Notes under the pieces: model-generated
The model's database searches: none
What the model was told of the DNA's origin: nothing
Seen by the model: only the letters and a program-made list of their open reading frames with translations
Translations under genes and position numbers: made by a program
Shown here: one piece after another, positions 1 to 13,691 of the stretch
Layout of the letters: every line of letters begins with the position of its first letter
Position numbering within the stretch: position 1 is the stretch's first letter
Source of the DNA: a virus
Taxonomy: Duplodnaviria; Heunggongvirae; Uroviricota; Caudoviricetes
DNA length: 13,691 nt
Direction: 5' to 3' (one strand)
Virus record (IMG/VR): IMGVR_UViG_2734482780_000014
Span: 1 to 13,691 of that record

Positions 1-1254
1 ATGCTGGAACAAATGGGCATTGCCGCGAAGCAAGCCTCGTATAAATTAGCGCAACTCTCCAGCCGCGAAAAAAATCGCGTGCTGGAAAAAATCGCCGATG
101 AACTGGAAGCACAAAGCGAAATCATCCTCAACGCTAACGCCCAGGATGTTGCTGACGCGCGTGCCAATGGCCTTGGCGAAGCGATGCTTGACCGTCTGGC
201 ACTGACGCCCGCACGGCTGAAAGGCATTGCCGATGATGTGCGCCAGGTGTGTAACCTCGCCGATCCGGTGGGGCAGGTAATCGATGGCAGCGTACTGGAC
301 AGCGGCCTGCGTCTTGAGCGTCGTCGCGTGCCGCTGGGGGTGATTGGCGTGATTTATGAAGCGCGCCCGAACGTGACGGTTGATGTCGCTTCGCTGTGCC
401 TGAAAACCGGTAATGCGGTGATCCTGCGTGGTGGCAAAGAAACCTGTCGCACTAACGCGGCAACGGTGGCGGTGATTCAGGACGCCCTGAAATCCTGTGG
501 CTTACCGGCGGGTGCCGTGCAGGCGATTGATAATCCTGACCGTGCGCTGGTCAGTGAAATGCTGCGTATGGATAAATACATCGACATGCTGATCCCGCGC
601 GGCGGGGCTGGTTTGCATAAACTGTGCCGCGAACAGTCGACAATCCCGGTGATCACAGGTGGTATAGGCGTATGCCATATTTACGTTGATGAAAGCGCAG
701 AGATCGCTGAAGCATTAAAAGTGATCGTCAACGCGAAAACTCAGCGACCGAGCACATGTAATACGGTAGAAACGTTGCTGGTGAATAAAAACATCGCCGA
801 TAGCTTCCTGCCCGCATTAAGCAAACAAATGGCGGAAAGCGGCGTGACATTACACGCAGATGCAGCTGCGCTGGCGCAGTTGCAGACAGGCCCTGCGAAG
901 GTGGTGGCGGTTAAAGCCGAAGAGTATGACGATGAATTTCTGTCATTAGATTTGAACGTTAAAATCGTCAGCGATCTTGACGATGCCATCGCCCATATTC
1001 GTGAACACGGCACACAACACTCCGATGCGATCCTGACCCGCGATATGCGCAACGCCCAGCGTTTTGTTAACGAAGTGGATTCGTCCGCTGTTTACGTTAA
1101 CGCCTCTACGCGTTTTACCGACGGCGGCCAGTTTGGTCTGGGTGCGGAAGTGGCGGTAAGCACACAAAAACTCCACGCGCGTGGCCCAATGGGGCTGGAA
1201 GCACTGACCACTTACAAGTGGATCGGCATTGGTGATTACACCATTCGTGCGTAA
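1..1254 (+). CDS. proA: gamma-glutamyl phosphate reductase (glutamate-5-semialdehyde dehydrogenase), complete 417 aa
   Basis: Full-length ORF starting at ATG at position 1; translation recognised as E. coli ProA over its whole length (from memory); followed by thrW as in the E. coli proBA-thrW locus. Confidence 0.96.
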
Positions 1255-1299
1255 ATAAAACCGGGTGATGCAAAAGTAGCCATTTGATTCACAAGGCCA

Positions 1300-1328
1300 T
1301 TGACGCATCGCCCGGTTAGTTTTAACCT
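1300..1328 (+). promoter_or_regulatory. candidate sigma70 promoter for thrW (-35 TTGACG 1300-1305, 17-nt spacer, -10 TAACCT 1323-1328)
   Basis: Hexamers read directly about 40 nt upstream of the tRNA 5' end; the -10 match is weak. Confidence 0.3.
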
Positions 1329-1368
1329 TGTCCACCGTGATTCACGTTCGTGAACATGTCCTTTCAGG

Positions 1369-1444
1369 GCCGATATAGCTCAGTTGGTAGAGCAGCGCAT
1401 TCGTAATGCGAAGGTCGTAGGTTCGACTCCTATTATCGGCACCA
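1369..1444 (+). tRNA. thrW: tRNA-Thr (anticodon CGU), 76 nt with encoded CCA
   Basis: GCCGATATAGCTCAGTTGGTAGAGCAGCGCATTCGTAATGCGAAGGTCGTAGGTTCGACTCCTATTATCGGCACCA: cloverleaf with D-loop AGCTCAGTTGGTAGAGC, anticodon loop TTCGTAA, T-loop GGTTCGACTCC. Position immediately after proA fits thrW. Confidence 0.95.
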
Positions 1445-1458
1445 TTAAAATCAATAAG

Positions 1459-2622
1459 TTATACATCATTAGTACCTTCCTTATTTTTTGACTGGGACAA
1501 ATTTGGGACCGATGGGTTCAGGATCGAGTCTATTTGCCGTGCGTGTTCGGTAAGGTGATTAGGTGCAAGGTGAGCATATCGACGAACCATTTCGATAGAC
1601 TCCCAGCCTCCCATTTCCTGTAAAACTGACAACGGGACTCCGGCTTGAACCAGCCAACTTGCCCAGGTGTGTCTCAAGTCGTGAAATCTGAAATCATCAA
1701 TACCAGCCCGTCTCAGCGCCGCTTTCCAGGCTGTGTTTGCGTCATACCGCATCTTCCTTACTGTTGGCGCTTTCGTTCCGTCTGGTTTGGTACAGCTTTC
1801 CTTGTACACAAATACCCAACGGTGATGATTCCCGATTTGTTTTTTCAATACGCGACATGCAGTATCATTCAGCGCAACGCCAATTGCGCGGTTTGATTTA
1901 CTCTCTTCCGGGTTTATCCATGCCACCCGGCGCTGCATATCTATTTGTTGCCATTCAAGGTTGATGATGTTCGAGCGTCTTAAGCCTGTTGCCAGTGCAA
2001 ATTCAACAACAGACTTTAATGGCTCCGGACATTCATCAATCAGCCTTTGTGCTTCATGGGGCTCCAGCCAGCGGATCCGTTTATTCTTTGGTTGAGGCAC
2101 TTTAATAATTGGTGCCTTATCCAGCATTTTCCATTCACGCTCTGCGGCTCTTAGTAGGGCCTTTATAAATGAAAGATGCGTAGCCTTCGTTGCAACGGAC
2201 GCTGGTTTTGGCGTGTATTCTGGAACAGGTTTCCCTTTTTTTCTGCATGCTTCTGCCCTGAGTTTCCAGTTTTCCTCATGACGCCGGTTCGTCATTTTCT
2301 GCATTGCTGAATAAATTTTTGATTCAGTAATGTCTCTTAGTTGCATTCCTGCGAAATGTTGAAGCCAGAATCCGATCCGGCTTTTGTCATCGTCCAGTGA
2401 TTTTTTATGTGCTTTCTCTTCAAGCCACCTGACACACGCTTCCTCGAACGTTATATCAGGTATTTCACCAAGTTTGCTGACCCGCCATGCTTCAGCCTTT
2501 AGCTTGTCATGGAGTTCTGTCGCCTGCCTTTTGTCCTTTGTTCCAAGAGACTGTTTAAATCTTTTACCGTTCGGCAATGTGAAACTGGCGTACCATATTT
2601 CACCTCTGCGGAAGAGTGACAT
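1459..2622 (-). CDS. int: tyrosine site-specific integrase, P22 Int-like, 387 aa
   Basis: 387-aa ORF adjacent to thrW; translation closely resembles phage P22 integrase as remembered (MSLFRRGE...HDLRHTWAS...VRRYAHL); ATG at 2622 with SD AGAGGAAAG upstream. Confidence 0.94.
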
Positions 2623-2849
2623 TTTCTTTCCTCTGTTATGCCATCACCCGCGCTCACCTGGACAGTATGCAGCGGAGACTGAAGAGCCGCAATGCAGGCT
2701 TGTCGTGTTGTGAGGTAAGGAGATTTATTCTTAGTGGGATCTTTGCGTGTTGCCTGAAGACGCCCTGTGCGTATCCAGTTAATGGCAGTCGGTCTGGATA
2801 TCTTGAGAAAATGACAGGCCTCATCGAGTGTGAGGCTGTATGGCTCCAT
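2499..2849 (-). CDS. xis: excisionase (P22 Xis-like), 116 aa from internal ATG at 2849
   Basis: ATG at 2849 preceded by AAGAGGTGAAATA; product [38 protein letters not shown]... resembles P22 Xis; overlaps the int 5' end by 124 nt. The ORF-track start at 2933 is probably an upstream extension. Confidence 0.8.
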
Positions 2850-3154
2850 TATTTCACCTCTTGCTGTGACATTGTTGAAAAATGGATACCAGCTCGTTGC
2901 TGCCAGACGATCCAACCGAGAGTCATATCCCATGCCATGTATTCGTTATCGCCGTTTTTTGCTCTCCGACGATCTACTAAGTCACCGAAACGCTTTTCCA
3001 TGAATAATTCATAAGCTTCGCGTTCATCTGGTTCTACTTCCAGAGATAGGAGTGCGATTTCATAAGCACGGCGCTCAATATCGTCTCGCACGTCAAGGCT
3101 GCTGATACGCTCTTTAATTTCTTTAATCAGTTCTTTGTCGGTAAAAGTGGTCAT
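2849..3154 (-). CDS. yfdT: hypothetical early-left phage protein, 101 aa (YfdT-like by size and position)
   Basis: ORF with ATG at 3154; its stop overlaps the xis ATG (TAATG). Symbol assigned from remembered CPS-53 gene sizes and order (yfdP 120, yfdQ 274, yfdR 178, yfdS 120, yfdT 101), not from alignment. Confidence 0.55.
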   Translation of the reverse strand: MTTFTDKELIKEIKERISSLDVRDDIERRAYEIALLSLEVEPDEREAYELFMEKRFGDLVDRRRAKNGDNEYMAWDMTLGWIVWQQRAGIHFSTMSQQEVK

Positions 3155-3516
3155 TATGCTCCAGCCTCCGGTGCTTTTGGCATTACTGCCCAGTGAGTGA
3201 TATTGACGTTTTCAAGGTCCCCGACCTGAAATGTCCACTGCCATTCTCCGGTTTCTTTTTGTCCCCAGGTGTACCAGAGAGAACGCCAGCCAATTAGCCA
3301 GCCTTCTCCGTTAGCATCGAATAACAAAACACTTTCATTTGCTGGTGGCAGTTCAGTTGACACTGGTATTACTTTGTTTTCCTGTGCTGCACATTTAGCT
3401 TCAAGCGCATCGAATTTACGCACCAGGTATTCAGCATCTGTTTCATTTACTTTCAGATCTCGCGGTACACATCTCCCACGAAGAAACCCTTCCATTTCGA
3501 AAACATTCATGCGCAT
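3154..3516 (-). CDS. yfdS: hypothetical early-left phage protein, 120 aa (YfdS-like)
   Basis: ATG at 3516 (second ATG at 3510 forms an ATGA overlap with the upstream stop); its stop overlaps the next start as TAATG at 3154. Confidence 0.6.
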   Translation of the reverse strand: MRMNVFEMEGFLRGRCVPRDLKVNETDAEYLVRKFDALEAKCAAQENKVIPVSTELPPANESVLLFDANGEGWLIGWRSLWYTWGQKETGEWQWTFQVGDLENVNITHWAVMPKAPEAGA

Positions 3517-4043
3517 TTGCGTAACTCCGATAACTCGTTAAAGCGTTCCATAAACATCCCGTAGGCATGGCCCGGTGCCAGTGGAATCACGTTGAACATC
3601 TCTGTTGCCGGGATACCTTCCAGTACAGGCCAGAAAGAGCCATCATCAAGCCCGAGATCGCGGCGTTCGGTTGCCAGCATGATGAGATCGGCATATTTCA
3701 CGGGCGTACTCATAACTGGGGGTAACCCGTATTTCTCACGGATTACGGCGTCTATTTTTTCTTCCATTTGTTTATAGTCAGGAAGAAGGCGTTTCAGTGG
3801 TGCGGGAATGTCCTGGCAATACGCTTCTGTTGCATCATGCATTAACGCTTCAAAAGCAAATTCCTGCGGCACCAACTGGCTGCAAAGAACCGCATGTTGG
3901 GCGACGCTGTAGAAGTGCGAAAGATGACCGGCAAAGCGACAGATATTTGAAAGGGAAACCGCGATATCGTTAATATCGATGTCGTCTTTATTTATCCTGT
4001 CATAATAAAAATGCTTCCCGGAAAAAGTTTTAATAAATGACAT
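3507..4043 (-). CDS. yfdR: HD-domain phosphohydrolase (YfdR-like 5'-deoxynucleotidase family), 178 aa
   Basis: H...HD signature (..LMHDATEAY..) in the translation; ATG at 4043 preceded by GGAG 8 nt upstream. The ORF-track start at 4070 is a GTG extension. Confidence 0.8.
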   Translation of the reverse strand: MSFIKTFSGKHFYYDRINKDDIDINDIAVSLSNICRFAGHLSHFYSVAQHAVLCSQLVPQEFAFEALMHDATEAYCQDIPAPLKRLLPDYKQMEEKIDAVIREKYGLPPVMSTPVKYADLIMLATERRDLGLDDGSFWPVLEGIPATEMFNVIPLAPGHAYGMFMERFNELSELRKCA

Positions 4044-4170
4044 TTTGTTCTCCACGTATATGCGCTGCACCGCGCTGAATTCTGGTAAAAAGAATCCCTC
4101 ACCATCCGGCGATTATTGAGTAAATTACGTTTCCATAAATGCCCCCGCAGGGGCATTTGCAGTAATGAAA

Positions 4171-4995
4171 TCAGGCGGTGAAAGTACCAATAAAGGTTTC
4201 TACTTTGCTGTCCTTGAATTTCTCAACAAGCAGATCACGAAATTCGTTAGCCATTTCTTCCTGCACCGCCTCCAGCTGAATAATGCGCAGAACCAGTACA
4301 GGACGATCGCCAGTGATAATACTGAGGCGTAATTTAAACGGACGTTCTTTCAGACCTTCAAACGGAACGCATTTAAATTCAAATGCCACTGGCATAATGT
4401 CTTTGATCTTCGCTTCGACAGACTCCATCAGGGAGCGTTTGCCGCTGAAGTCATTATCTTCAAAATCAGCGGTCTGGTTTGCTTCAATCGTGATTTTACG
4501 GACAGCCGCAGCCGCTTTTGTTGCCTGAATAGCGTCACCATTAGCATCAAAGCCCACAAGATAGTCGGCCCAGTCTTCAATCCATTCTGCCAGTGACTTC
4601 TGGGAGTTACGCTCGCCGTTAACAGACAACAGAGCAGAGAACGGTGCTGTCTTTTTCAGTTTGAGTGTGGCGGTGTTATCTGCGTGACCTGGTTCATCAA
4701 TAGTACCCAGGTTAAGCACACTGACGGCACGCATATTATCAGCATCGATAAAGCAGCGGGTGCCTTCATCTGCAAGATCTTTAGAATAACGGGTAAAGTC
4801 ATCGATGCTGGCAGTGGAAAGCGCACCACGGAAACGGAAGCGATTTAAATTAAATTTTTCCAGATCATGAATGCGGAAATTCTCAGGCAATGCCACAGCA
4901 TCGGCACCAATCTTACTGATAATTTCATTAACACCCTGAGCAGAAATAAGGGCATGGATTTGATTAATTGAGGTTGCGTCTAAGTTCTGAGACAT
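4171..4995 (-). CDS. yfdQ: hypothetical phage protein, 274 aa (YfdQ-like, DUF2303-type by recollection)
   Basis: ATG at 4995 with SD GAGGA upstream; size and position match yfdQ of CPS-53. Confidence 0.65.
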
Positions 4996-5060
4996 AATAA
5001 GTCCTCACTATATAAAGATATTCAGTGATGAGATAAATAATCAGTTAATTAAAAACGATA

Positions 5061-5423
5061 TTAACGACCTGCTGCGCGGAGTTTTCCGTCAGGTTCACCG
5101 GCAAGAGTCAGTAACTGTCCCTGGTCTTCCTGCAGAATAGTCAGGCGACCACCGCGATTGACATACATCGGCGTTTCGGTGGTGTCTTCTTCGGAAATTT
5201 TCCCGCGGTTAGTCGGGCGAACATATGAGAGTTTGTGTTTGATTTTCACACGGTTCTCATCAAATGGTTCGATTTCCAGGTTGAGTGAGACCTTACCTTT
5301 GGTTTTCGTGTTCATCACACCGGAAGCGACTTCACTGAGAACTGCGCCGATTTTGGTTTCAAATACGCCGCCGTCCAGCTCCCCGATAAATGCCTGCACA
5401 TCAGTACTGCGTTCGCTAGCCAT
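5061..5423 (-). CDS. yfdP: hypothetical phage protein, 120 aa (YfdP-like)
   Basis: ATG at 5423 preceded by GAGGAG at 8 nt. The upstream 106 codons of ORF 5061-5741 are Arg/Cys-rich read-through of GC-rich non-coding DNA and were excluded. Confidence 0.65.
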   Translation of the reverse strand: MASERSTDVQAFIGELDGGVFETKIGAVLSEVASGVMNTKTKGKVSLNLEIEPFDENRVKIKHKLSYVRPTNRGKISEEDTTETPMYVNRGGRLTILQEDQGQLLTLAGEPDGKLRAAGR

Positions 5424-5471
5424 TTTGCTGCTCCTCATCATATCGACCCTGCAAGGCCGATTAGTTTCTCC

Positions 5472-5560
5472 ACAAAACAGAGAAGAACACCTGCGGTGGC
5501 AGCCGCCCGGATGGATTGGGTTATGAGCCCGTCGTCCGGTGATGCTCTTCTCTGTTTTGT
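5472..5560. repeat. perfect 14-bp inverted repeat (ACAAAACAGAGAAG / CTTCTCTGTTTTGT) flanking a 61-nt GC-rich spacer
   Basis: Arms at 5472-5485 and 5547-5560 read directly; lies in a ~470-bp region with no credible ORF on either strand. Confidence 0.7.
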
Positions 5561-5824
5561 AAAAAGGACGGTACCAGCCGGAAGCAAGGGTACAAACTGG
5601 TACCTCCAGGACTACACACAGCATAAAGTTGTGGTGCCGGGTGCCTCCCGGTGCCTGGCGAAGGTTGCACACCAGACGGGTGGGTATCCACAGAAGGTCG
5701 ACTGTCAGCCTCAACCTTAACCCGCGTGCGCTGAGCCGCATTCACCACAACGCTAAGGATTCTCTCTGGTTAAAAATACTTAGCTGTTATGTGCCTGCTT
5801 TTAGCCACATCAGGCGAGGTGGAC

Positions 5825-5876
5825 CTGGTTATTCCCCAACAACAAGGATTCGGTTAATCTGGTTATCCCCAACAAC
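5825..5876 (+). repeat. two direct repeats CTGGTTAT(T)CCCCAACAAC with 34-bp period, immediately upstream of the 5892 start codon
   Basis: Copies at 5825-5843 and 5859-5876 differ by one T; further GGTTA motifs at 5767 and 5853. Confidence 0.7.
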
Positions 5877-5891
5877 GCAAAAGGAAAAGAA

Positions 5892-6326
5892 ATGTCCGGT
5901 AATATCTACACGCTGTACAAATCCCACTGTGAAAATGTTGGAAAGTATCGGGGCATTGAAATCAGTGGGGTAGTGTCATCAGTCGAAATAAGCAAAGTGG
6001 AATCAAGGGCAACATTACTTACTCTTCTGGACCTTGTCTTACATGAGCACCGGAAGAAATTCGGCACTCCCTATAATCAGTTGAATGGGAAAAAGGCTCT
6101 GGTTCACCTTATTCTGATGAAGCATCACTGGATGCCAAAACAGATTAATGAGATGAAATTTGATGAACTTCTTCTTTCAATTCAGGATGAACTCACACTT
6201 GATAAAATAAGCGTAACCGCCCAGAAATTTTTAGATTATCGAGACTGGAGATCACAAATTCATCACTTTGATGATTTTGACGAAAATGAATGGGATCCTA
6301 ATTTGTCTGCACAATATCTAAAGTAA
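5892..6326 (+). CDS. hypothetical protein, 144 aa; AT-rich moron opposite to the leftward early operon
   Basis: ATG at 5892 with AAGGA 6 nt upstream; clearly more AT-rich than flanks; no recognisable motif; acidic C-terminus. Confidence 0.7.
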   Translation: MSGNIYTLYKSHCENVGKYRGIEISGVVSSVEISKVESRATLLTLLDLVLHEHRKKFGTPYNQLNGKKALVHLILMKHHWMPKQINEMKFDELLLSIQDELTLDKISVTAQKFLDYRDWRSQIHHFDDFDENEWDPNLSAQYLK

Positions 6327-6504
6327 CATCCTGTGATAAAACCGTGATTTCCTGATCCAGTTTTTTTAAGGAGTCTATTGTTTCCTGTCGATAAGACAGC
6401 ACTTCACGAAGCTGGTTTATAGCTGCCAGCTTCTTTGCCATCCACTCGTAAATTTCCTCATCTGTGTAGCCAGGCGCGACGATTTTGGGTTCTGTTTTGT
6501 GCAT
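6298..6504 (-). CDS. hypothetical small protein, 68 aa (first gene downstream of candidate pL; acidic, coiled-coil-like, not N-like)
   Basis: ATG at 6504 preceded by GAGGAG at 9 nt; the ORF-track start at 6519 is TTG. Its 3' end overlaps the 144-aa ORF convergently by 29 nt. Confidence 0.6.
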   Translation of the reverse strand: MHKTEPKIVAPGYTDEEIYEWMAKKLAAINQLREVLSYRQETIDSLKKLDQEITVLSQDVTLDIVQTN

Positions 6505-6548
6505 TTCACATCTCCTCAAGTTATCAGTTACTTGTTGATGGGGACCAG

Positions 6549-6561
6549 ATTGTTAAAGAGC
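6549..6561 (-). promoter_or_regulatory. rrn-type boxA-like element GCTCTTTAACAAT in the pL leader RNA, immediately 3' of a hairpin
   Basis: Minus-strand sequence matches the remembered rrn boxA core (TGCTCTTTAACAAT...) at 13 of 13 positions; lies between candidate pL and the first leftward gene. Confidence 0.5.
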
Positions 6562-6563
6562 TA

Positions 6564-6587
6564 AGCGTCCTGTAGGGCGCTTTTTTG
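6564..6587 (+). terminator. intrinsic terminator for plus-strand transcripts (stem AGCGUCC/GGGCGCU, loop UGUA, then UUUUUU)
   Basis: 7-bp stem with one G-U pair followed by a T6 run on the plus strand; the same hairpin on the minus strand precedes the boxA-like element. Confidence 0.55.
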
Positions 6588-6671
6588 TTGCTAACGAATC
6601 ATCCTGGACTTCATATGCCCCAGGCGGCTACTTCGTGGGCGTCCTGCCTGTTTGTTGTTTCGCTTGGGTAC

Positions 6672-6699
6672 ATTATGTATCTCAAAGGTACATTATCAA
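6672..6699 (-). promoter_or_regulatory. candidate pL (-35 TTGATA 6699-6694, 16-nt spacer, -10 CATAAT 6677-6672) overlapped by GGTACATTAT direct repeats (putative OL)
   Basis: Hexamers read on the minus strand just downstream of the repressor terminator; GGTACATTAT copies at 6667-6676 and 6687-6696 overlap the -10 and -35. Confidence 0.45.
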
Positions 6700-6702
6700 G
6701 TA

Positions 6703-6727
6703 TAAAAAAACCTGCCGAAGCAGGTTC
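6703..6727 (-). terminator. intrinsic terminator downstream of the repressor gene (stem AACCUGC, UUCG tetraloop, U7 tract)
   Basis: Minus strand reads GAACCUGC-UUCG-GCAGGUU followed by UUUUUUU, 12 nt after the repressor stop. Confidence 0.7.
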
Positions 6728-6738
6728 ATAAACATTGA

Positions 6739-7413
6739 TTAGGCTTTGATTTTGTATCTTCTTGGTTTTCCTGAGAAAATCACTGTACCAATTATAGAGC
6801 AATTACCGTTGATCTTAATGTAAGGCTCAGGCCAGTTTGGGTTTAACGCTTTGAGATAACGCTGTGTCCCATCTTCTATCAACCTTTTGAAGGTGGTTTC
6901 ACCTGTATCGTGCATCAATGCAATAACGTCGTCACCGTGGCAGGCAGGTACTTCAGGATCGACAAAAATCATGTCTCCCGGGCGGTACTCATCAATCATT
7001 GAATCACCTATCACCCGCAAGATATAAGTCATTTCCCCACAGGGTACAGGGCAGGGATACGTTTCTGCTGTGCTCAAATCAACCTCAGAATATCCAACTT
7101 CTTTCCATGCTCCGGCCTGTACCCATGATATGACAGGGACTAATGTGATTTGTTTATTAGTGATTGAAACATCAGGTTTTTTTGTGATGTTCGTTGTCTG
7201 GTGTTCTTGATCGAGCCATCCGACAGGCAGGTCGAAACATTTTTCGATGTGTCGTGCCATGCTGTCACCGATATTTTTAGTAGCACCATCTCCCATAAAC
7301 CTGCTGGTCTGGGTTGGCTCGCGATCAATCATAGTGGCAAAGGAAGAATTCCCGCCAACACCATCTCTCAGTTTTCTGGCGTTAGACCGCCGGATGTCAT
7401 GGATTGTTTTCAT
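6739..7413 (-). CDS. CI-type prophage repressor with C-terminal S24 LexA-like peptidase domain, 224 aa
   Basis: C-terminal region resembles P22 C2 (..VIGDSM.. and LNPNWPEPYIKINGNCSIIG vs remembered LNPQYPMIEINGNCKIIG); divergent to a cro-like gene across an operator region. Confidence 0.9.
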   Translation of the reverse strand: MKTIHDIRRSNARKLRDGVGGNSSFATMIDREPTQTSRFMGDGATKNIGDSMARHIEKCFDLPVGWLDQEHQTTNITKKPDVSITNKQITLVPVISWVQAGAWKEVGYSEVDLSTAETYPCPVPCGEMTYILRVIGDSMIDEYRPGDMIFVDPEVPACHGDDVIALMHDTGETTFKRLIEDGTQRYLKALNPNWPEPYIKINGNCSIIGTVIFSGKPRRYKIKA

Positions 7414-7428
7414 AACGAAATTAAAACC

Positions 7429-7449
7429 CTTGTACCGTTAAGGTACAAG
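7429..7449. promoter_or_regulatory. operator palindrome CTTGTACC-GTTAA-GGTACAAG (GTAC-N7-GTAC)
   Basis: Perfect 8-bp inverted arms in the repressor/cro intergenic region. Confidence 0.6.
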
Positions 7450-7453
7450 TATC

Positions 7454-7481
7454 TTGAAGGTTCATTTCAATCATGTAATAT
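7454..7481 (+). promoter_or_regulatory. candidate pR (-35 TTGAAG 7454-7459, 16-nt spacer, -10 TAATAT 7476-7481)
   Basis: Hexamers upstream of the cro SD GGAGG (7489-7493); the second operator overlaps the predicted start site. Confidence 0.4.
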
Positions 7482-7498
7482 GTACACCGGAGGTACAT
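7480..7498. promoter_or_regulatory. operator palindrome ATGTAC-ACCGGAG-GTACAT (GTAC-N7-GTAC)
   Basis: Same half-site and spacing as the 7429-7449 palindrome. Confidence 0.55.
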
Positions 7499-7503
7499 AT
7501 TGT

Positions 7504-7704
7504 ATGAAAGCGTATTGGGACTCTTTAACCAAAGAACAGCAGGGCGAGTTGGCCGGAAAAGTTGGCTCAACACCTGGCTACTTACGGCTGGTTTTCAATG
7601 GCTATAAAAAAGCCAGTTTTGTGCTGGCTAAAAAACTTGAGCAATGCACGTCAGGTGCAATTACGAAATCTGACTTAAGACCGGATATCTATCCGAAAGA
7701 TTAG
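7504..7704 (+). CDS. Cro-like HTH regulator, 66 aa (YdaS/Cro family with LRPDIY motif)
   Basis: ATG at 7504 preceded by GGAGG; divergent from the repressor. The larger ORF-track call 7201-7704 is antisense to the repressor and only its last 66 codons are credible. Confidence 0.75.
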   Translation: MKAYWDSLTKEQQGELAGKVGSTPGYLRLVFNGYKKASFVLAKKLEQCTSGAITKSDLRPDIYPKD

Positions 7705-7735
7705 CAGAACACTTTCAATTTTTAACCACAGAACG

Positions 7736-8299
7736 ATGAGGCTAATCGTGGGTAAGCATCACTGGAAAATAGAAAAACAGCCTGAGTGGTACGTGAAAGC
7801 TGTCAGAAAAACTATCGCGGCGTTGCCGGGTGGTTACGCTGAAGCGGCTGACTGGCTCGATGTAACAGAAAATGCTTTATTCAACCGCCTTCGTGCAGAT
7901 GGCGATCAGATTTTCCCGCTGGGATGGGCAATGGTTTTACAGCGTGCTGGTGGCACTCACTTCATTGCTGATGCTGTGGCGCAGTCTGCAAATGGCGTCT
8001 TTGTGTCTCTTCCTGACGTCGAGGATGTGGACAACGCCGATATCAACCAACGCCTGCTGGAGGTCATTGAACAGATCGGCAGTTATTCAAAACAGATTCG
8101 TTCAGCAATTGAAGACGGTGTAGTGGAACCGCATGAGAAGACAGCAATTAACGACGAGTTGTACCTCTCAATTTCGAAGCTGCAGGAGCATGCAGCACTG
8201 GTCTACAAAATTTTTTGCATTTCAGAAAGTAATGACGCCCGCGAGTGTGCAGCTCCGGGCGCCGTGGCGTGTCGTGACTGTGGAGAAACTAACGCATGA
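7736..8299 (+). CDS. hypothetical phage early protein, 187 aa (possible CII-like/YdaT-like regulator; function not verified)
   Basis: First gene after cro; ATG at 7736 (alternative GTG at 7748 after GAGG); its stop overlaps the next start as ATGA. Confidence 0.65.
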
Positions 8300-8634
8300 A
8301 CAGTTTAACAACACACTACCGTCGCTCGCAACTTATTGCGCTTCCTGTACCGGGTGGAAAAGCGAAGGTGGAGTATTGCTATGCAGTGAATGTACCAGGT
8401 GACAGGGAAATTGTAACCCACAGCTTTGCAGAGTGGGCTGTGGGGGATTTCAACCGGCAGAAGGAGGCAGTCCTTTGCGACAAGTTAACCGCTGGTTCAA
8501 AGATCACTACGGAGTGCCCGTCAGAGTCATTCGTTGGGAGCCGGAAACACAACGGGTTATCTACCTCCGTGAAGGCTATGAGCATGAGTGCTTCAGCCCG
8601 CTCGAACAGTTTCGTCGTAAATTCAGGGAAATAG
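8296..8634 (+). CDS. hypothetical protein, 112 aa (possibly YmfM-like by size and position; see frameshift finding)
   Basis: ATG at 8296 overlaps the upstream stop; the C-terminal third is Ser-rich and low-complexity, while an alternative frame (8433-8654) reads more protein-like. Confidence 0.45.
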
Positions 8635-8643
8635 AGGTCGGTC

Positions 8644-8886
8644 ATGAGCACTAAATTAACCGGCTATGTATGGGATGGTTGCGCAGCGTCAGGCATGAAA
8701 TTATCCAGCGTGGCAATTATGGCCCGCTTGGCTGATTTCAGTAATGACGAAGGTGTGTGCTGGCCATCAATTGAAACCATTGCCCGCCAGATTGGCGCGG
8801 GGATGAGTACCGTCAGAACGGCTATCGCACGGCTGGAAGCAGAAGGCTGGTTAACGCGTAAGGCGCGTCGCCAGGGTACCGGGTGA
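8644..8886 (+). pseudogene. N-terminal winged-HTH fragment (80 aa) of a phage replication initiator (O-like), truncated
   Basis: ATG at 8644 with GAGGT upstream; translation has the HTH pattern typical of phage replication-initiator N-termini (recognised from memory, not aligned); the ORF stops after 80 aa and is followed by tail-fibre sequence. Confidence 0.55.
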
Positions 8887-8950
8887 TGACTCTCCGGGAG
8901 AAAACAAAAGCCAGACCGACTACTGGCAGGAGCTGAAAGAGGGCTTCTCC

Positions 8951-9166
8951 GTGGTTGTCATACTGAGTAACGGGCGTGATGAGCGCGGTCAGTTTGCCTC
9001 GTATGATGTGGTGGACGATGTCCGGCAGATGCTCTTTAAGGCCCTGCTGGGCTGGAACCCGGCTATTACAGAGGGTGGTGTTGTTGCGGCAACGACTAAA
9101 CCTGCAGGTGCGAATGAAACACGCCCACGAAATGTCGCTTTTAACTATATTGTGAGGGCTGCATAA
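8951..9166 (+). pseudogene. C-terminal fragment of a side tail fibre protein (variable part)
   Basis: Ends ...NETRPRNVAFNYIVRAA with stop overlapping the tfa ATG (TAATG) as in stf-tfa pairs; the frame is open only back to 8855, so the N-terminal bulk is missing. Confidence 0.6.
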
Positions 9167-9768
9167 TGAATAACGCAGAATTAAACAGTGAATTAATTGC
9201 CACTATGGCAGGAGAAATTACTGTTTATAACTTTGACGTCATGAGTCGGGAGTATATTTCAGCTTCAACTGAATATCTTGCTGTTGGTGTCGGCATTCCG
9301 GCATATTCCTGTTTAGATGCTCCAGGCACCTACAAAGCTGGTTATGCAATCTGCCGCTCTGCAGATTTTAACTCATGGGAATATGTACCAGACCATCGCG
9401 GTGAAATTGTCTTTAGCACCGAAACAGGAGAATCAAAAGAAATCACAGCACCGGGTGATTACCCTGATAATACAACCACTATCGCCCCGTTAACGCCATA
9501 CGATAAATGGGATGGTGAGAAATGGGTGACGGATACCGAGGCACAGCATAGCGCCGTAGTAGATGCAGCAGAAGCACAGCGCCAGTCGCTGATTGATACA
9601 GCAATGGCTTCTATCAGTCTGATTCAACTGAAATTACAGGCCGGACGGAACCTGACGCAGGCAGAAACCGCCCGACTTAACGCTGCGCTGGATTACATTG
9701 ACGCGGTGACGGCAACAGATACCAGCACCGCACCGGATGTCATCTGGCCTGAACTGCCGGAGGCGTAG
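9166..9768 (+). CDS. tfa: tail fibre assembly protein (Tfa), 200 aa
   Basis: C-terminus ...DYIDAVTATDTSTAPDVIWPELP matches the conserved Tfa C-terminal motif. Confidence 0.88.
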   Translation: MNNAELNSELIATMAGEITVYNFDVMSREYISASTEYLAVGVGIPAYSCLDAPGTYKAGYAICRSADFNSWEYVPDHRGEIVFSTETGESKEITAPGDYPDNTTTIAPLTPYDKWDGEKWVTDTEAQHSAVVDAAEAQRQSLIDTAMASISLIQLKLQAGRNLTQAETARLNAALDYIDAVTATDTSTAPDVIWPELPEA

Positions 9769-10171
9769 GCCATTCAATATCTGGCGCACTGGAAGTATCG
9801 ACCAGTTCCAGTGCGTCCAGATAATCCAGCCACAAATTATATTGCGCCAGTTCCTCACCTTTCAGACGACCAATCGCCGCTTTACCAGGCCATTGTTTAC
9901 TGTTCATGTATTCGTTGGCCTGATTAACTAATCGCTGTTTATTTGATTCAGCGATTGAGATTAATTCTTCGCTGGTAAGTGGTGGCGCATCCTGCCATGC
10001 TGGAAAACCATTTTTATCTGAACCAAGTATTTTACCATCAGGCCATGCAACTCCTGCGAACTCAGAATAAATAGTAAAGTTTATTTTCGTAGCGTTCTCA
10101 GGAATGGTTTGGCTATCTGGTGAAATATAAAATCCCGAATCAGAGGGATTAAAATAATATGTCTTTTCCAT
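9740..10171 (-). CDS. tfa: tail fibre assembly protein (alternate, opposite orientation), 143 aa
   Basis: C-terminus ...WLDYLDALELVDTSSAPDIEWPTPP; convergent 29-nt overlap with the plus-strand tfa, as in invertible tail-fibre segments. Confidence 0.88.
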   Translation of the reverse strand: MEKTYYFNPSDSGFYISPDSQTIPENATKINFTIYSEFAGVAWPDGKILGSDKNGFPAWQDAPPLTSEELISIAESNKQRLVNQANEYMNSKQWPGKAAIGRLKGEELAQYNLWLDYLDALELVDTSSAPDIEWPTPPAVQAR

Positions 10172-10173
10172 AG

Positions 10174-10572
10174 TTAATACCCCACAGCCATCCAGTAAAT
10201 TGAATTTGTTGTAGCAGAAGTGTAAGTAAATCTGATTTTAGTTCTGTTGGTACTTCCAATATCAAAGCCCACAGAACGGGCAGAAGGATCATTAGTTGAA
10301 ATAAGAGCGTTTACCGAACGACAAGCAGCAGGGAAAGCTACAGGTAATGTTATATCAACTGTTCCAACACTTCCTCCGGTTGGTGAGACAGAAAAACTCC
10401 CCCATTGAATAATCATCCCCCCAGGTAATTTCTGGTATCCATTGGCGGTCAATGAGTTACCAAAGCTGTTTATATCCGGTACCTGATTTTCTCCTGTCCC
10501 CACATTCCTCTTTGCCGCTTCTCCCAAACCAACGTTTATGAAAATGCAGAAATAACGAGCAAATGGCATCAT
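10174..10572 (-). pseudogene. alternate tail fibre C-terminal variable domain (inverted orientation), lacking the constant N-terminal part
   Basis: Immediately upstream of tfa' on the minus strand; the N-terminal about 18 codons read through the recombination site and pin leader. Confidence 0.6.
10519..10544. promoter_or_regulatory. Hin/Gin/Pin-type recombination site (hix/gix-like) TTCTCCCAAACC-AA-CGTTTATGAAAA
   Basis: About 20 of 26 positions match the remembered hixL consensus, including AAACC/GTTT half-site cores and AA centre; located just upstream of pin. Confidence 0.5.
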
Positions 10573-10598
10573 TCCTGCTTTTGTCAGGGAGATCTACC

Positions 10599-10790
10599 AT
10601 GCTTATTGGCTATGTACGTGTGTCAACAAATGACCAGAACACAGATCTACAACGTAATGCGCTGAACTGTGCAGGATGCGAGCTGATTTTTGAAGATAAG
10701 ATAAGCGGTACAAAGTCCGAGAGCCTAGGGCTGACACTGCTGTTCTTGATGCAAATTAAAGGATTTAATAGTGAGTTGTGGCCTTACTAA
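10599..10790 (+). pseudogene. pin: truncated DNA invertase (Pin/Gin/Hin serine recombinase); homology covers only about 42 N-terminal residues
   Basis: MLIGYVRVSTNDQNTDLQRNAL.CAGCE.IFEDK.SGT... is nearly identical to the e14 Pin N-terminus as remembered, then diverges (..SESLGLTLLF..) and stops at 10790; ATG at 10599 after AGGGAG. Confidence 0.85.
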
Positions 10791-10799
10791 TGTAAGGCC
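10780..10799. terminator. hairpin GGCCTTAC-TAAT-GTAAGGCC between the convergent pin' and GmrSD-like genes (possible bidirectional terminator)
   Basis: Perfect 8-bp stem; moderately T-rich only on the plus-strand side; sits where pin homology breaks down. Confidence 0.3.
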
Positions 10800-10823
10800 G
10801 CTATAATCATTTTATTAATTGCA

Positions 10824-12713
10824 TTAATCGTGTTTTGGCCATACTTTCAATGCAATTTCCCCCAACTTTTTACCCCGCTCCAGGATTTCACCTTCATCCC
10901 ATTTATCCTTAAGTATAAGTGGTATGTTCAGTCGTAGATTGGTGTGGACGATGAGAGCATCACGTTTTTTCAGAAATACAGCATTCTGAACAGAACGGTT
11001 TACGCTAAGGTTAAGCAAAGTTAGATTTCCCAACGTAGCTATCGCTTGTTGCCGTTTCCTTACCAGTAGCTGTTCAGGGGTAAGATCTGTTCCAGACAGA
11101 ACAATTTGGTTCAATACCGTTGCATCTGAATTTGTCACCATATGACCATTTTCGAGAGGCCAACAGGAATACCAACTTTGAGGCATAAGATGATCGATAT
11201 CGAGATTGGAAAGATTTGGAACATCAGGCTTCTCTGTCTTCACTTGGCGACAAAGTTCTCTTTCAAGTTCCGTTAACATTGAGCGCATTTTCGGTGCGTC
11301 GAGCCTGCCAGGATAAAGTGGAGCATTGATGCAAGCATTGAGAAATTCTGAGTCACCAGGCCAACGTGAGGCTTCGCCATTTAAGCTATTGAGGATATTA
11401 CGTAACTCAACACTGGAAATTTCCGTTTTAGACAAGTGCCGCAATACATTCATAAATACATTGTTGTAATTCTTTGGCGTCAGGCCACATACGGCTCTTC
11501 GTACTACGTAGGAGACAAGATCATTATACATGGCTGCTTTCTCACCATCGGCGATGTTAGCTATCGAAATGAACAAAGCAAGCGGATAAAGTGTCGTCAC
11601 ATCATAGGCTGCGATGCGATGTCCAAAGTGTGAGATGGGGGTTGTGCCAAAACCACCAACCAATTCTTTATATTGTGATGCATATTGTTTGAGGCGCTTT
11701 ACTTGCAGATCAGCTCGTTGTGAAGGCAAGTCCTTACTTACATAATCACGATACTCATTGTAAAGACGAGACAGATCAATTTCACGTTGCCTTTCTGATT
11801 GCAATGTCGCATGCACTAGCCACTCCATGCGTGGTTTATTAATACGTCCACGGCGTTGCCTTTCCGACCAGTATGTATCTTCAAAGCTCTTCCACTCATT
11901 TTCATATAATTCAATAGCATTAATATTTTCATGCTCAGCGCACATAAAGATGTAGTTGCGAATAAGATCCGTGGCATGAAGTTCCGCCCCTCGGCCATTT
12001 AATGTTTCAAAAATTATTTGGGCATCATCTTCAGCTTCGAGAAATATGCTTACCAGTTTCAGATCCGTCAAGACAGCCTCAATTAGTGCTACAGCATTTT
12101 CATGTGGTGAGTACTTTTCTATTTTAATCCATTTTATAAAGGCTTCAGTAAAAAACCATAATGCCTCTAGTGACGGCGGGTGGTTGAAATGTTTACGTAA
12201 CGTACCATGTTGCGTGAAGCTATCAGAAAATACATCACGGAGATCGTCAATGTTTTCAACATTAAAACTTTGAATAAAATGAGTTTGGTCTCGAAAAGTT
12301 GGCCACAGTTTGAAGCATTCTACCTTTTTATTTCGCATAGTTGCTTCGTTTGTATTTTTCAAGCAAGTCAATACTAACCCTTCCAAATCAGAAAGGCCTG
12401 TAGCACGCAATGATAATCGAATGGATGCCAGAATATATTGAAGAGTGGTTAAACGTTGCTGGCCGTCAATAATATGTATGGTATCTACACCTAACAAGCT
12501 GTTTTTGAGTTGAGGTTCCAGCACCACCGCGCCAAGGAAATGGGGAGTTGGTTTTGTTCCCAAAAGTCGGCTATGTGCTTTTTCGAAGATATCCTCCAGC
12601 AAAGCTGACCATTGGTTTTGTTGCGTCCATACGTAGGCACGTTGATAGAATGGAACACGATATTGTCGTTGATTTTGGAAAAGTTGCTGGATGGTTAGCG
12701 TTTCGGATTTCAT
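10824..12713 (-). CDS. GmrSD-family type IV restriction endonuclease-like protein (N-terminal DUF262, C-terminal DUF1524 His-Me finger), 629 aa
   Basis: N-terminal VPFYQRAYVW and IIDGQQR motifs; C-terminal DIDHLMPQSW nuclease motif; ATG at 12713 with AGGT upstream; AT-rich compared with proA. Confidence 0.8.
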   Translation of the reverse strand: MKSETLTIQQLFQNQRQYRVPFYQRAYVWTQQNQWSALLEDIFEKAHSRLLGTKPTPHFLGAVVLEPQLKNSLLGVDTIHIIDGQQRLTTLQYILASIRLSLRATGLSDLEGLVLTCLKNTNEATMRNKKVECFKLWPTFRDQTHFIQSFNVENIDDLRDVFSDSFTQHGTLRKHFNHPPSLEALWFFTEAFIKWIKIEKYSPHENAVALIEAVLTDLKLVSIFLEAEDDAQIIFETLNGRGAELHATDLIRNYIFMCAEHENINAIELYENEWKSFEDTYWSERQRRGRINKPRMEWLVHATLQSERQREIDLSRLYNEYRDYVSKDLPSQRADLQVKRLKQYASQYKELVGGFGTTPISHFGHRIAAYDVTTLYPLALFISIANIADGEKAAMYNDLVSYVVRRAVCGLTPKNYNNVFMNVLRHLSKTEISSVELRNILNSLNGEASRWPGDSEFLNACINAPLYPGRLDAPKMRSMLTELERELCRQVKTEKPDVPNLSNLDIDHLMPQSWYSCWPLENGHMVTNSDATVLNQIVLSGTDLTPEQLLVRKRQQAIATLGNLTLLNLSVNRSVQNAVFLKKRDALIVHTNLRLNIPLILKDKWDEGEILERGKKLGEIALKVWPKHD

Positions 12714-13298
12714 TGTTTACCTATAAGTGACATTCCACAAGAGTAAGAAATTCATCTGAGTCAGAATAATCATTTTTATGTAGTCATGATACAGTGTATT
12801 TGTTGCTGGTGAAGTAAAAACGAGAAATCCCGCTTTTGAATGCTGACGTGCTACGGCTTCATTGGATATTCTCTTTTGTCTGTTCTCCATTGCGTCGGTG
12901 TTTTGTCGAGATTGTTAGCACACTGTTGCTGCTGTTTTTTTATCCAAGCGCTGCTAAATCATTGTAGATGGCACTATCGGGTATTGAAGCTGCAGACATG
13001 TCGTATACAATAGTCAGCTGCGACTGGCTGGTGAACTTCCGATAGTGCTAGTATTGAATTATGTCAAGCCGTTATCGATTTTACGTATTTTTTGTATGAG
13101 AGGATTTGCACCTCCTCCCACCGCTCCTCCATGACTTTACGCCACTGTCTCTAGGGCTGCTAAGTGCCAGGAACGGACATTGGTGGTATGCAGGATCAGA
13201 GGGGAATAAAAAACTTATTATATTGATTAAGATGGGGCTATTCTTGGCGACTTAAGCCGATATGATACAGATCAAGTGTGCTCTTTTAGGGTTCCATA

Positions 13299-13691
13299 TT
13301 GATTAACAGAAAATTAATTGTAGAGTTAATCGTATATTTCATGAGAGATGAATTGATTCGTGGATTTTCGAAGTGGGGGCGTCGGGTAAAGACTGACCTG
13401 ACACAGATGGATGAATCTTTCCCAATAATGCCGATTTTTAATGAGCACATCAATTCTATTTTCAAAGTGTATATTCTATTCAATGAAAAATATCACATCA
13501 CAAAAGCTTTAAAAGCAAAAGAATTCATAATAAACTTCATTGGAGAGAGAGAGGATTATATTGATGATGAATACATTATCGCAGAACTAAAAAATACACA
13601 AACAGGTTTGAGTATAAACAAAAAAACCATTCCTACATCAGCGCTTGAGAAAATATCCGATTTTTACAGAATAAAAGAATACCTATTTTAG
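13299..13691 (+). CDS. hypothetical protein, 130 aa (116 aa if it starts at ATG 13341); very AT-rich, divergent from the GmrSD-like gene
   Basis: ORF ending with TAG exactly at the window end; TTG at 13299 follows AGGG by 7 nt, ATG at 13341 has no SD; no recognisable motif. Confidence 0.5.
   Translation: MINRKLIVELIVYFMRDELIRGFSKWGRRVKTDLTQMDESFPIMPIFNEHINSIFKVYILFNEKYHITKALKAKEFIINFIGEREDYIDDEYIIAELKNTQTGLSINKKTIPTSALEKISDFYRIKEYLF

Follow-up and report, generated by a model that had tools for sequence, protein, structure and literature searches.

Hotspots of illegitimate recombination at terB/Tus, and those mediated by gyrase, fix one endpoint within 1-2 nucleotides and leave the other variable, with little or no homology between the partners. 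Prophage decay is usually viewed as random deletion combined with selection; in the family of elements described here its endpoints are instead precise to the nucleotide, carry a short motif at both partners and have recurred dozens of times, in examples that include the textbook Escherichia coli K-12 elements e14 (ymfN) and CPS-53 (yfdO), which hold complementary fragments of an O-like replication gene broken at the same TA. The locus under study is a stretch of 13,691 nucleotides (hereafter the window; positions 1 to 13,691 of IMG/VR record IMGVR_UViG_2734482780_000014, Caudoviricetes) in which a truncated O-like gene is followed by pieces of late phage genes. We read it, at a probability of roughly 0.8, as the scar of a nonfunctional SfIV/e14-type prophage in thrW that arose by two collinear illegitimate deletions, the first of which (junction 1, J1) fell on a recurrent, non-random TA within GGGTAAC. 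The scar comprises the following features (ORF, open reading frame; wHTH, winged helix-turn-helix).

8644-8886 (+): truncated O-like replication initiator gene (O'), an 80-codon ORF made of 78 native codons (wHTH), 2 foreign codons and TGA
8875-8878: J1, GGTA microhomology with TA at 8877-8878, joining O nt 235 to tail-terminator nt 129 (three-way alignment)
8875-9062 (+): internal fragment of a tail-terminator gene, 188 bp, nt 129-316 of 561, in its native frame
9056-9062: junction 2 (J2), 7-bp microhomology AACCCGG, between the terminator fragment and the final 111 bp of a tail-fibre gene (three-way alignment)
9056-9166 (+): tail-fibre 3' end (variable C-terminal part), in frame with the terminator fragment; called ORF 8951-9166, GTG start

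In the three-way alignment, native O sequence stops at 8878, ending ...CGCCAGGGTA, and the next bases, CCGGGTGATGAC..., are of other origin. The initial annotation, made from the window alone, had described an O-like winged-HTH fragment that stops after 80 codons at 8886, and this description holds: the domain matches Pfam HTH_36 (E=3e-12), codon 78 falls at its end, and the intact protein of relatives has 313 aa (L004 3940-4881, phage vB_EcoM-720R4), with weaker DnaD_N and RP-C N-terminal Pfam matches besides HTH_36. Intact O genes further contain 5-6 in-gene copies of a 15-bp iteron (GTCAAAATCTGACNC) at nt 303-450 (L004 4242-4390), and in intact relatives these origin-type iterons begin 65 bp and end 215 bp downstream of the point at which the window diverges. 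Their copy number in the O-like gene varies among phages. Because native O sequence stops at nt 235, both the iterons and the O C-terminal domain are deleted in the window. Of the parts that characterize a lambda O-type initiator, the N-terminal winged-helix domain is present, and the in-gene iteron array and C-terminal domain are missing; as judged from these parts, the window holds a fragment of an O gene and not a lambda O-type initiator gene.

The segment that follows (8875-9062) is 100% identical to vB_EcoM-720R4 20001-20188, as it is to over 1,000 E. coli records bearing the annotation 'phage tail terminator protein'; it is 99.5% identical to SfV orf9 and also matches SfIV 7178-7365. Its translation matches Pfam PF23840 at profile positions 50-114 only, so that a full-length tail terminator (PF23840, about 150 profile positions) is not encoded. 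The match to tail-fibre 3' ends begins only at 9056, at 99.5% identity. A frame open from 8855 to 9166 ends ...RPRNVAFNYIVRAA* and overlaps the start of tfa (TAATG, 9164-9168); the initial annotation had described this frame as ending in the tail-fibre C-terminal motif and coupled to tfa, which is correct for the C-terminus and the overlap, whereas 8875-9062 is tail terminator. Alignment to intact related prophages, proposed at that time as a check, sets the end of native O at 8878, the terminator at 8875-9062 and the fibre end from 9056 onwards; J1 lies inside the range expected for a breakpoint (about 8855-8950), and J2 had not been predicted. The downstream ORF is, by its alignments, a chimera in which the two foreign codons and stop of O' are followed by the terminator fragment and the in-frame tail-fibre end, and it is unlikely to function. 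The parents of both joints are collinear in phage order and orientation and no mobile element lies at the joints, as in microhomology-mediated illegitimate deletion. To produce two junctions takes two or more deletions, or else a single event in which the template was switched twice; J2 itself looks like ordinary 7-bp microhomology joining. Both junctions are present in a food metagenome contig (L179; 98.6% identity over 7.1 kb, 102 substitutions), and the double junction was found in no complete RefSeq E. coli genome.

J1 lies at the TA within CAGGGTA/ACC (the slash here and below marks the break). Its left end, ...CGCCAGGGT(A), is identical in the window, in K-12 e14 ymfN and in the e14 of E. 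coli PCP06173. K-12 ymfN, annotated 'chimeric replication protein/phage terminase' (oweE', 234 nt), shows the same cut joined to the terminase gene; in the e14 variant of PCP06173 the O-like gene is cut at the same base and continues into the 3' end of ymfQ. The complementary side, TA/ACCGC..., is what K-12 CPS-53 retains, its yfdO homology beginning at nt 234 and being joined to the region upstream of yfdP. By comparison with intact partner sequences, the microhomologies of the four events are GGTA, GTA, GGT and TA, and the ranges within which the breaks could lie (window, K-12 e14, PCP06173, CPS-53) intersect at CAGGG^T^AACC. The initial annotation did not remark that the O breakpoint coincides with that of K-12 e14 ymfN. 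A literature search brought up no account of the recurrent TA endpoint, the complementary fragments in e14 and CPS-53, or the motif described below, though an earlier notice of the K-12 coincidence may exist.

Pattern scans of IMG/VR yielded ten more loci in which ...CAGGGTA is followed by ten different sequences, and metagenome data contributed two further partners besides the L179 copy of the window's own junction. Together the IMG/VR and metagenome scans added about 14 left-kept and 4 right-kept junctions, all with different partners. When the opposite side was scanned, TAACCGC... turned up with four more partners, and no junction lay one or two bases to the right of it; left-kept scans displaced 1-3 bases to the right of the TA gave one locus for GGGTAA/, one for GGGTAAC/ and none for GGGTAACC/. 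An unfiltered scan of viral contigs, anchored 38 nt upstream of the site, returned 120 loci, about 104 of them with an intact gene start. With iteron-number variants and a GGG-to-GG frameshift set apart from true junctions, six distinct junction types fell within a 400-nt span, four at the J1 site (the K-12 type and three others) and the remaining two both inside the iterons. In a scan of genome contigs with an 18-nt pattern every match was a chance one in an unrelated GC-rich genome, and most matches of the metagenome scan were of that sort too.

Some variants of this region are recorded separately. Two unrelated junctions (L087 and L024) both break right after ...TCAAAAT at an iteron centre. 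One IMG/VR locus (L066, cf. window 8874-8876) lacks 1 nt of the GGG run that precedes the hotspot TA (CCAGG-TAACC), so that O is frameshifted, and two others (L144, L145) carry a synonymous GGC-AAC that abolishes the TA.

A protein search with the 78 N-terminal O residues gave, among the 140 candidates listed (all of 137 aa or less), to which the following counts refer, 119 short proteins. At least 49 distinct C-terminal tails come directly after ...KARRQG (codon 78), and since 48 of the 49 start with an A-first codon, the DNA end can be placed at ...GGGTA. At least 17 distinct tails follow codon 60/61 and at least 2 follow codon 70, with 1-2 at each other position. All mappable events are collinear deletions, of 1.2-26 kb, and none of the 15 mapped events is an inversion. 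On these alignments, the J1 position is shared by recurrent independent deletions and is usable from either side.

The preference for this position extends to a short motif. Exactly three GGNTAHC sites occur in the O gene, GGCTATC at nt 177, GGTTAAC at nt 206 and GGGTAAC at nt 231, and these are its three most used left endpoints. Further copies in the window are as follows.

8296-8634 (+): YmfM homologue (ORF), containing the GGNTAHC site GGTTATC at 8555-8561
8820-8826: GGCTATC, and 8849-8855: GGTTAAC, the GGNTAHC sites in O' that are intact here and are the second and third most used endpoints in other genomes

At the ymfM site (the product is annotated in K-12 as a cell division inhibitor), which serves as a recurrent deletion endpoint in other genomes too, four distinct chimeric tails occur right after ...RKHNGL, the other ymfM breakpoints being scattered singles. 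An intact partner site could be recovered for 15 events. As with serine-recombinase-like exchange, the crossover falls at one shared central dinucleotide, TA, in 15 of 15 partner sites and in the 48 of 49 tails after ...GGGTA, the K-12 e14 joint (GGT/G) being an exception; the cognate recombinase, extended half-sites and inversions that would complete such a system were not found. A C stands two bases downstream in 14 of the 15 partner sites (P about 4e-8; background after TA in phage 31%), and G is enriched four and five bases upstream; the conserved positions reach only about 3 bp either side of the TA. Individual partner sites are themselves reused, both after codon 78 and after codon 60/61: in DUF968 (...TVAFEEKYG), terminase (...NDDVVKPVKEQ) and RusA (...NRIRDLDNY), and at a site ...IRRTGINELG. 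The second junctions of the K-12 elements are of the same kind, that of e14 (portal/baseplate J) being TA-centred (GTGTGGTA/TATGCG, L006 10136-10139) and that of CPS-53 (methyltransferase/tail fibre) crossing within TAC (L007 8122-8124).

In the sequence of events that we favour, deletion 1 would have joined the O TA (nt 234/235) to terminator nt 129, and deletion 2 would have joined terminator nt 316 to a point 111 bp before the fibre gene end. The junction statistics suggest that a break-and-rejoin process could act at GGNTA/HC-like sites in direct orientation. Selection for losing replication and lysis while keeping immunity may then have operated on the products, and such selection probably explains why O sites dominate over other motif sites. 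Several points weigh against this reading. The motif-directed step is inferred from junction statistics, and J2 does not fit the TA pattern. The C at +2 is a preference and not a rule, as five tails begin ATG (Met) and several retained sides read TAGA, TAAG or TACG. The pattern scans fix part of the site, which biases their frequencies; the protein sample is limited to listed short ORFs (137 aa or less); and a distinct tail is a proxy for an independent event, some of which may be secondary rearrangements of one ancestor. The two deletions may have been sequential or may be one event with two template switches. A host- or phage-encoded break-and-join activity, as yet undescribed, that acts at GGNTA/HC and deletes between direct motif copies in e14/SfV/CPS-53-type prophages, with O truncation at codon 78 as its commonest product, is possible, and we put it forward tentatively. 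Its candidate agents would presumably include Rpn-type RecA-independent recombination nucleases and the early-left yfdP-T homologues (window 2849-5400).

Known agents were considered for J1, and most can be discarded. Pin, of the Pin/Din invertases, is the only serine recombinase of these phages; its action at pseudo-sites does not account for J1, as the pix core is AA with ACC/CGT flanks (...AAACC AA CGTTT...) as against GGNTA/HC, and there are no inversions. Terminase or cos-like cutting is discounted on the unrelated SfI/SfV cos, TGCCCGCCCC. Phage integrase at secondary sites is discounted on the use of the hotspot in elements with three integrases and attachment (att) sites (icd, argW, thrW). 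For deletion mediated by insertion sequences (IS), or aberrant excision, no IS end or foreign element occurs at any junction examined, the IS66 in L009 and the IS3 orfA partner being internal or distant and not at the joints. Only the pentamer GTAAC matches Tus/Ter, by inspection. A BstEII-type cut (GGTNACC) meets partners without the site, and the filled-in ends ...GTAAC that it would leave are rare (1 locus versus 10). Gyrase is a less likely candidate, as its classical GRYC pattern does not appear to match the motif. The origin iterons as a break site start 65 bp downstream, and only 2 sampled junctions fall in them. In topoisomerase I sites that are cleaved at TA, a C is conserved four nucleotides to the 5' side (PMC9352719). 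The J1 TA has G in that position on either strand, and the site does not qualify for cleavage by that enzyme.

The main non-enzymatic rival is replication arrest with template switching, in which a nascent 3' end stalls at ...GGGTA(AC) near the origin and finds short homology further downstream on which to re-anneal, in the manner of the terB hotspot and with no dedicated enzyme. We consider it unlikely, despite several features that would suit it: the site lies 65 bp upstream of the iterons, the events are collinear deletions only with no inversions, the microhomologies are of 1-7 nt, and the O gene is co-directional with chromosome replication at all three att sites, given the replichore positions of K-12. 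The same motif is nevertheless used at sites far from the origin (ymfM, portal, baseplate J, RusA, DUF968). Contrary to what annealing would produce, positions -3 and +1 of the partners show no enrichment of identity to the O site. Nor can pairing of a nascent end explain the conserved C at +2, because it is found on the partner's deleted side in five of five right-kept events. A hairpin or quasi-palindrome is not supported by the predicted fold, which is not unusual (z = -0.4).

That selection alone produced the pattern, with random breaks of which only codon-78 truncations survive, for example as a clean wHTH fragment that is harmless or useful, appears improbable. Deletions that destroy O and the origin and spare immunity are plausibly favoured, and codon 78 does stand at the end of the wHTH domain; however, selection at the protein level cannot yield single-nucleotide precision, and few endpoints fall in the interval of roughly 60 nt that separates codon 78 from the iterons, where they should be equally harmless. 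The right-kept events at the same TA, the TA-H-C at partners (including their deleted side) and the reuse of partner nucleotides would also go unexplained. Descent of the shared O breakpoint from one ancestral deletion, such as the e14 ymfN fusion, would account for the near identity of the left flank across the elements and would suit the wide distribution of e14-type elements; it is highly improbable all the same, given that the partners differ (terminase, ymfQ, tail terminator, capsid, lysis genes, RusA, DUF968, LexA-like and others), that the events occur at three att sites (icd, argW, thrW) and that some keep the opposite side of the same TA. K-12 e14 lacks a terminator gene, and so the window cannot derive from it.

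A single deletion that fused truncated O straight to the tail-fibre 3' end was the interpretation of the initial annotation, and it is scarcely tenable. It agrees with the truncation of O at 8878 and with a downstream frame that ends in a tail-fibre C-terminus before tfa, but the three-way alignments resolve two novel joints with 188 bp between them (8875-9062) that are 100% identical to the middle of the tail-terminator gene, a gene that intact phages carry at a distance of about 16 kb from O and some 10 kb from the end of the fibre gene. Artefacts of assembly or sequencing, suggested by the many chimeric ORFs from automated assemblies of public reads, have a negligible probability, for the same endpoint occurs at two loci of the finished K-12 MG1655 genome and in other complete genomes, the window's double junction is reproduced in the independent contig L179 with 102 substitutions, and assembly chimeras arise at long shared k-mers and not at 2-4 nt.

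Outside the scar, the left arm of the window holds the following.

1-1254: proA', ORF at the left end of the window, upstream of thrW
1369-1444 (+): tRNA-Thr gene thrW (ARAGORN, Rfam), the prophage left end, adjoining proA
1399-1453 (+): attL core, 55 bp; SfIV homology begins at 1399, and contig L179 has the repeat again at its far end
1459-2622 (-): integrase, SfIV-type, 387 aa, an ORF inside the 99.3% block that matches SfIV int (SfIV_28)
2849-5400 (-): early-left operon with YfdT/S/R/Q/P homologues (DUF2303 protein, HD-domain 5'-deoxynucleotidase, others)
6739-7413 (-): CI-like repressor (immunity), 224 aa, an ORF collinear with SfIV_37 'repressor / cI'
7736-8299 (+): CII-like regulator, YmfL homologue (Pfam Phage_CP76 E=1e-13)

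From 1399 to 8878 the window forms a single unbroken 7.5-kb block that is 99.3% identical to Shigella phage SfIV 23198-30677, in the order attP, int, xis, early-left genes, cI, cro, CII-like gene, ymfM and the O-like gene to nt 235; at 8300-8881 the nucleotide identity to the ymfM-O region of SfIV/SfII is 99%. Serotype-converting Sf phages integrate in thrW adjoining proA (PMC3636060), and here too the element begins at the thrW 3' end by proA with int adjacent, the arrangement of SfV/SfIV/e14-type integration. Because the SfIV block starts at 1399 and Sf integration is reported in thrW by proA, the element is identified, by homology, as an SfIV/e14-type prophage at its normal attachment site. 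The early-left operon occupies the usual position of lambdoid recombination genes, and no recognisable recombinase is seen there. Between the yfdP homologue and the next early gene, 5400-5750 is GC-rich, and long ORFs on the two strands overlap there; Rfam gives no match at the gathering threshold, and the SfIV annotation there lists hypothetical proteins only.

The right arm retains the following.

9166-9768 (+): tfa, tail-fibre assembly (Pfam Caudo_TAP E=9e-33; 99.5% identity to E. coli tfa genes)
9740-10171 and 10174-10572 (-): alternative tfa' and alternative fibre C-terminus, ORFs with tfa / tail-protein annotation matches, the other half of a former invertible segment
10519-10544 (+): sole remaining invertase crossover site, pix-like, TTCTCCCAAACC AA CGTTTATGAAAA (TTCTCCCAAACCAACGTTTATGAAAA)
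10599-10734 (+): remnant of the pin invertase gene, about 45 codons; K-12 pinE homology stops at 10734
10824-12713 (-): cargo gene for a GmrSD-family type IV restriction enzyme (DUF262/DUF1524), 629 aa (Pfam GmrSD_N E=8e-34, GmrSD_C E=2e-18)

On the map of phage 720R4, deletion 1 covers about 15.8 kb between O nt 235 and terminator nt 129 and removes the iterons, the C-terminal part of O, nin, Q, and the lysis, terminase, portal, packaging and head genes. With deletion 2, from terminator nt 316 to 111 bp before the tail-fibre gene end, the left invertase site and the bulk of the fibre gene are lost, along with the genes for sheath, tube, tape measure and baseplate; its size can be inferred, from the gene order in 14EC001 and 720R4, as about 10 kb. 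The total loss of about 26 kb covers replication, lysis, head and tail genes and leaves an element of about 12.8 kb. The initial annotation was thus borne out in that replication, lysis, packaging and head genes are missing, to which nin/Q and almost all tail genes can be added, and in that integration, immunity and cargo are kept (the 99.3% block from 1399 to 8878 and the GmrSD gene). It had also raised the prospect that the missing modules lie just outside the window. They do not, because the 55-bp att core recurs in L179, as attR, about 490 bp past the window's right end. What is left of the late region is 188 bp of terminator, 111 bp of fibre gene and the tfa genes, in place of a complete set of terminase, portal, capsid, sheath, tube, baseplate and fibre. 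Judged by this gene content, the element would be unable to replicate, lyse or assemble particles.

In the former invertible segment, no second crossover site was found in the window even with 7 mismatches allowed, the partner site having been lost through deletion 2. A Din-family (Pin/Gin/Cin/Hin) segment consists of two inverted 26-bp sites and an intact serine invertase, and neither the pair nor the enzyme is present, so that the tail-fibre segment is, as far as its sites and genes indicate, frozen. The same pin remnant occurs in E. coli 14EC001, where it is annotated 'recombinase family protein, incomplete', and because that strain carries the same remnant, the truncation of pin predates both large deletions. 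The same strain (L146, 3,980,000-4,027,000) has the same right arm, keeps the whole late region and has lost the left arm; an IS3-family element adjoins a truncated tssM there, which represents a different route to a defective prophage. The GmrSD gene, at the attR-proximal end, takes the position of mcrA in e14 and of gtr in Sf phages, and this right arm occurs also in 46 complete E. coli genomes. The right end of the window (12714-13691) is AT-rich, and a 130-codon ORF that runs off it (13299-13691+) is conserved with the GmrSD arm in other E. coli.

Taken alone, the scar is one more SfIV/e14-like prophage whose lytic functions are lost and whose immunity, integration and restriction-type cargo are kept. 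J1 marks a hotspot of illegitimate recombination in decaying prophages. Should a defined enzyme or replication intermediate prove to underlie it, the domestication of prophages in E. coli would become directly testable, and the motif could predict break sites. A sequence-directed activity, if real, would be a specific molecular route by which such prophages become 'grounded'.

The scar itself is ordinary as a defective SfIV/e14-type thrW prophage, and its closest known relative is K-12 e14. Both share the early region cI, cro, ymfL, ymfM and O', with O interrupted at an identical nucleotide, after 234 nt or 78 codons, and continued by late-gene sequence, and both carry a tail-fibre/tfa invertible segment, pin and a type IV restriction cargo at the right end. 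They differ in that e14 resides in icd with IntE and the window element in thrW with an SfIV-type Int; in that the partner in e14 is terminase (GGT microhomology), with terminase, portal and baseplate fragments retained; and in that the cargo is McrA in e14 and GmrSD in the window, which also has a truncated pin and one crossover site. The intact relatives, SfIV/SfII/SfV/SfI and vB_EcoM-720R4, share 99.3% identity from attP and int through the early region to O nt 235, the thrW site by proA, and a tail-terminator segment identical or nearly so to the window fragment. Unlike the window they encode an O protein of 313 aa from a gene with internal iterons, carry nin, lysis, head and tail genes over about 26 kb, and have gtr O-antigen genes by attP where the window has pin'-GmrSD. 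CPS-53 (KpLE1) yfdO/oweS' of K-12 has its endpoint at the same TA of the same gene, with the 2-bp microhomology TA; it differs in keeping the right part of O, in having the immunity region deleted (yfdP-upstream/O nt 234) and in its att site, argW. The terB/Tus hotspot, finally, differs in that the window has no Ter-like site, only GTAAC matching. In this family of elements both partners carry the same short motif, and in this regard they resemble recombination of a primary site with pseudo-sites more than the hotspots of terB or topoisomerases.

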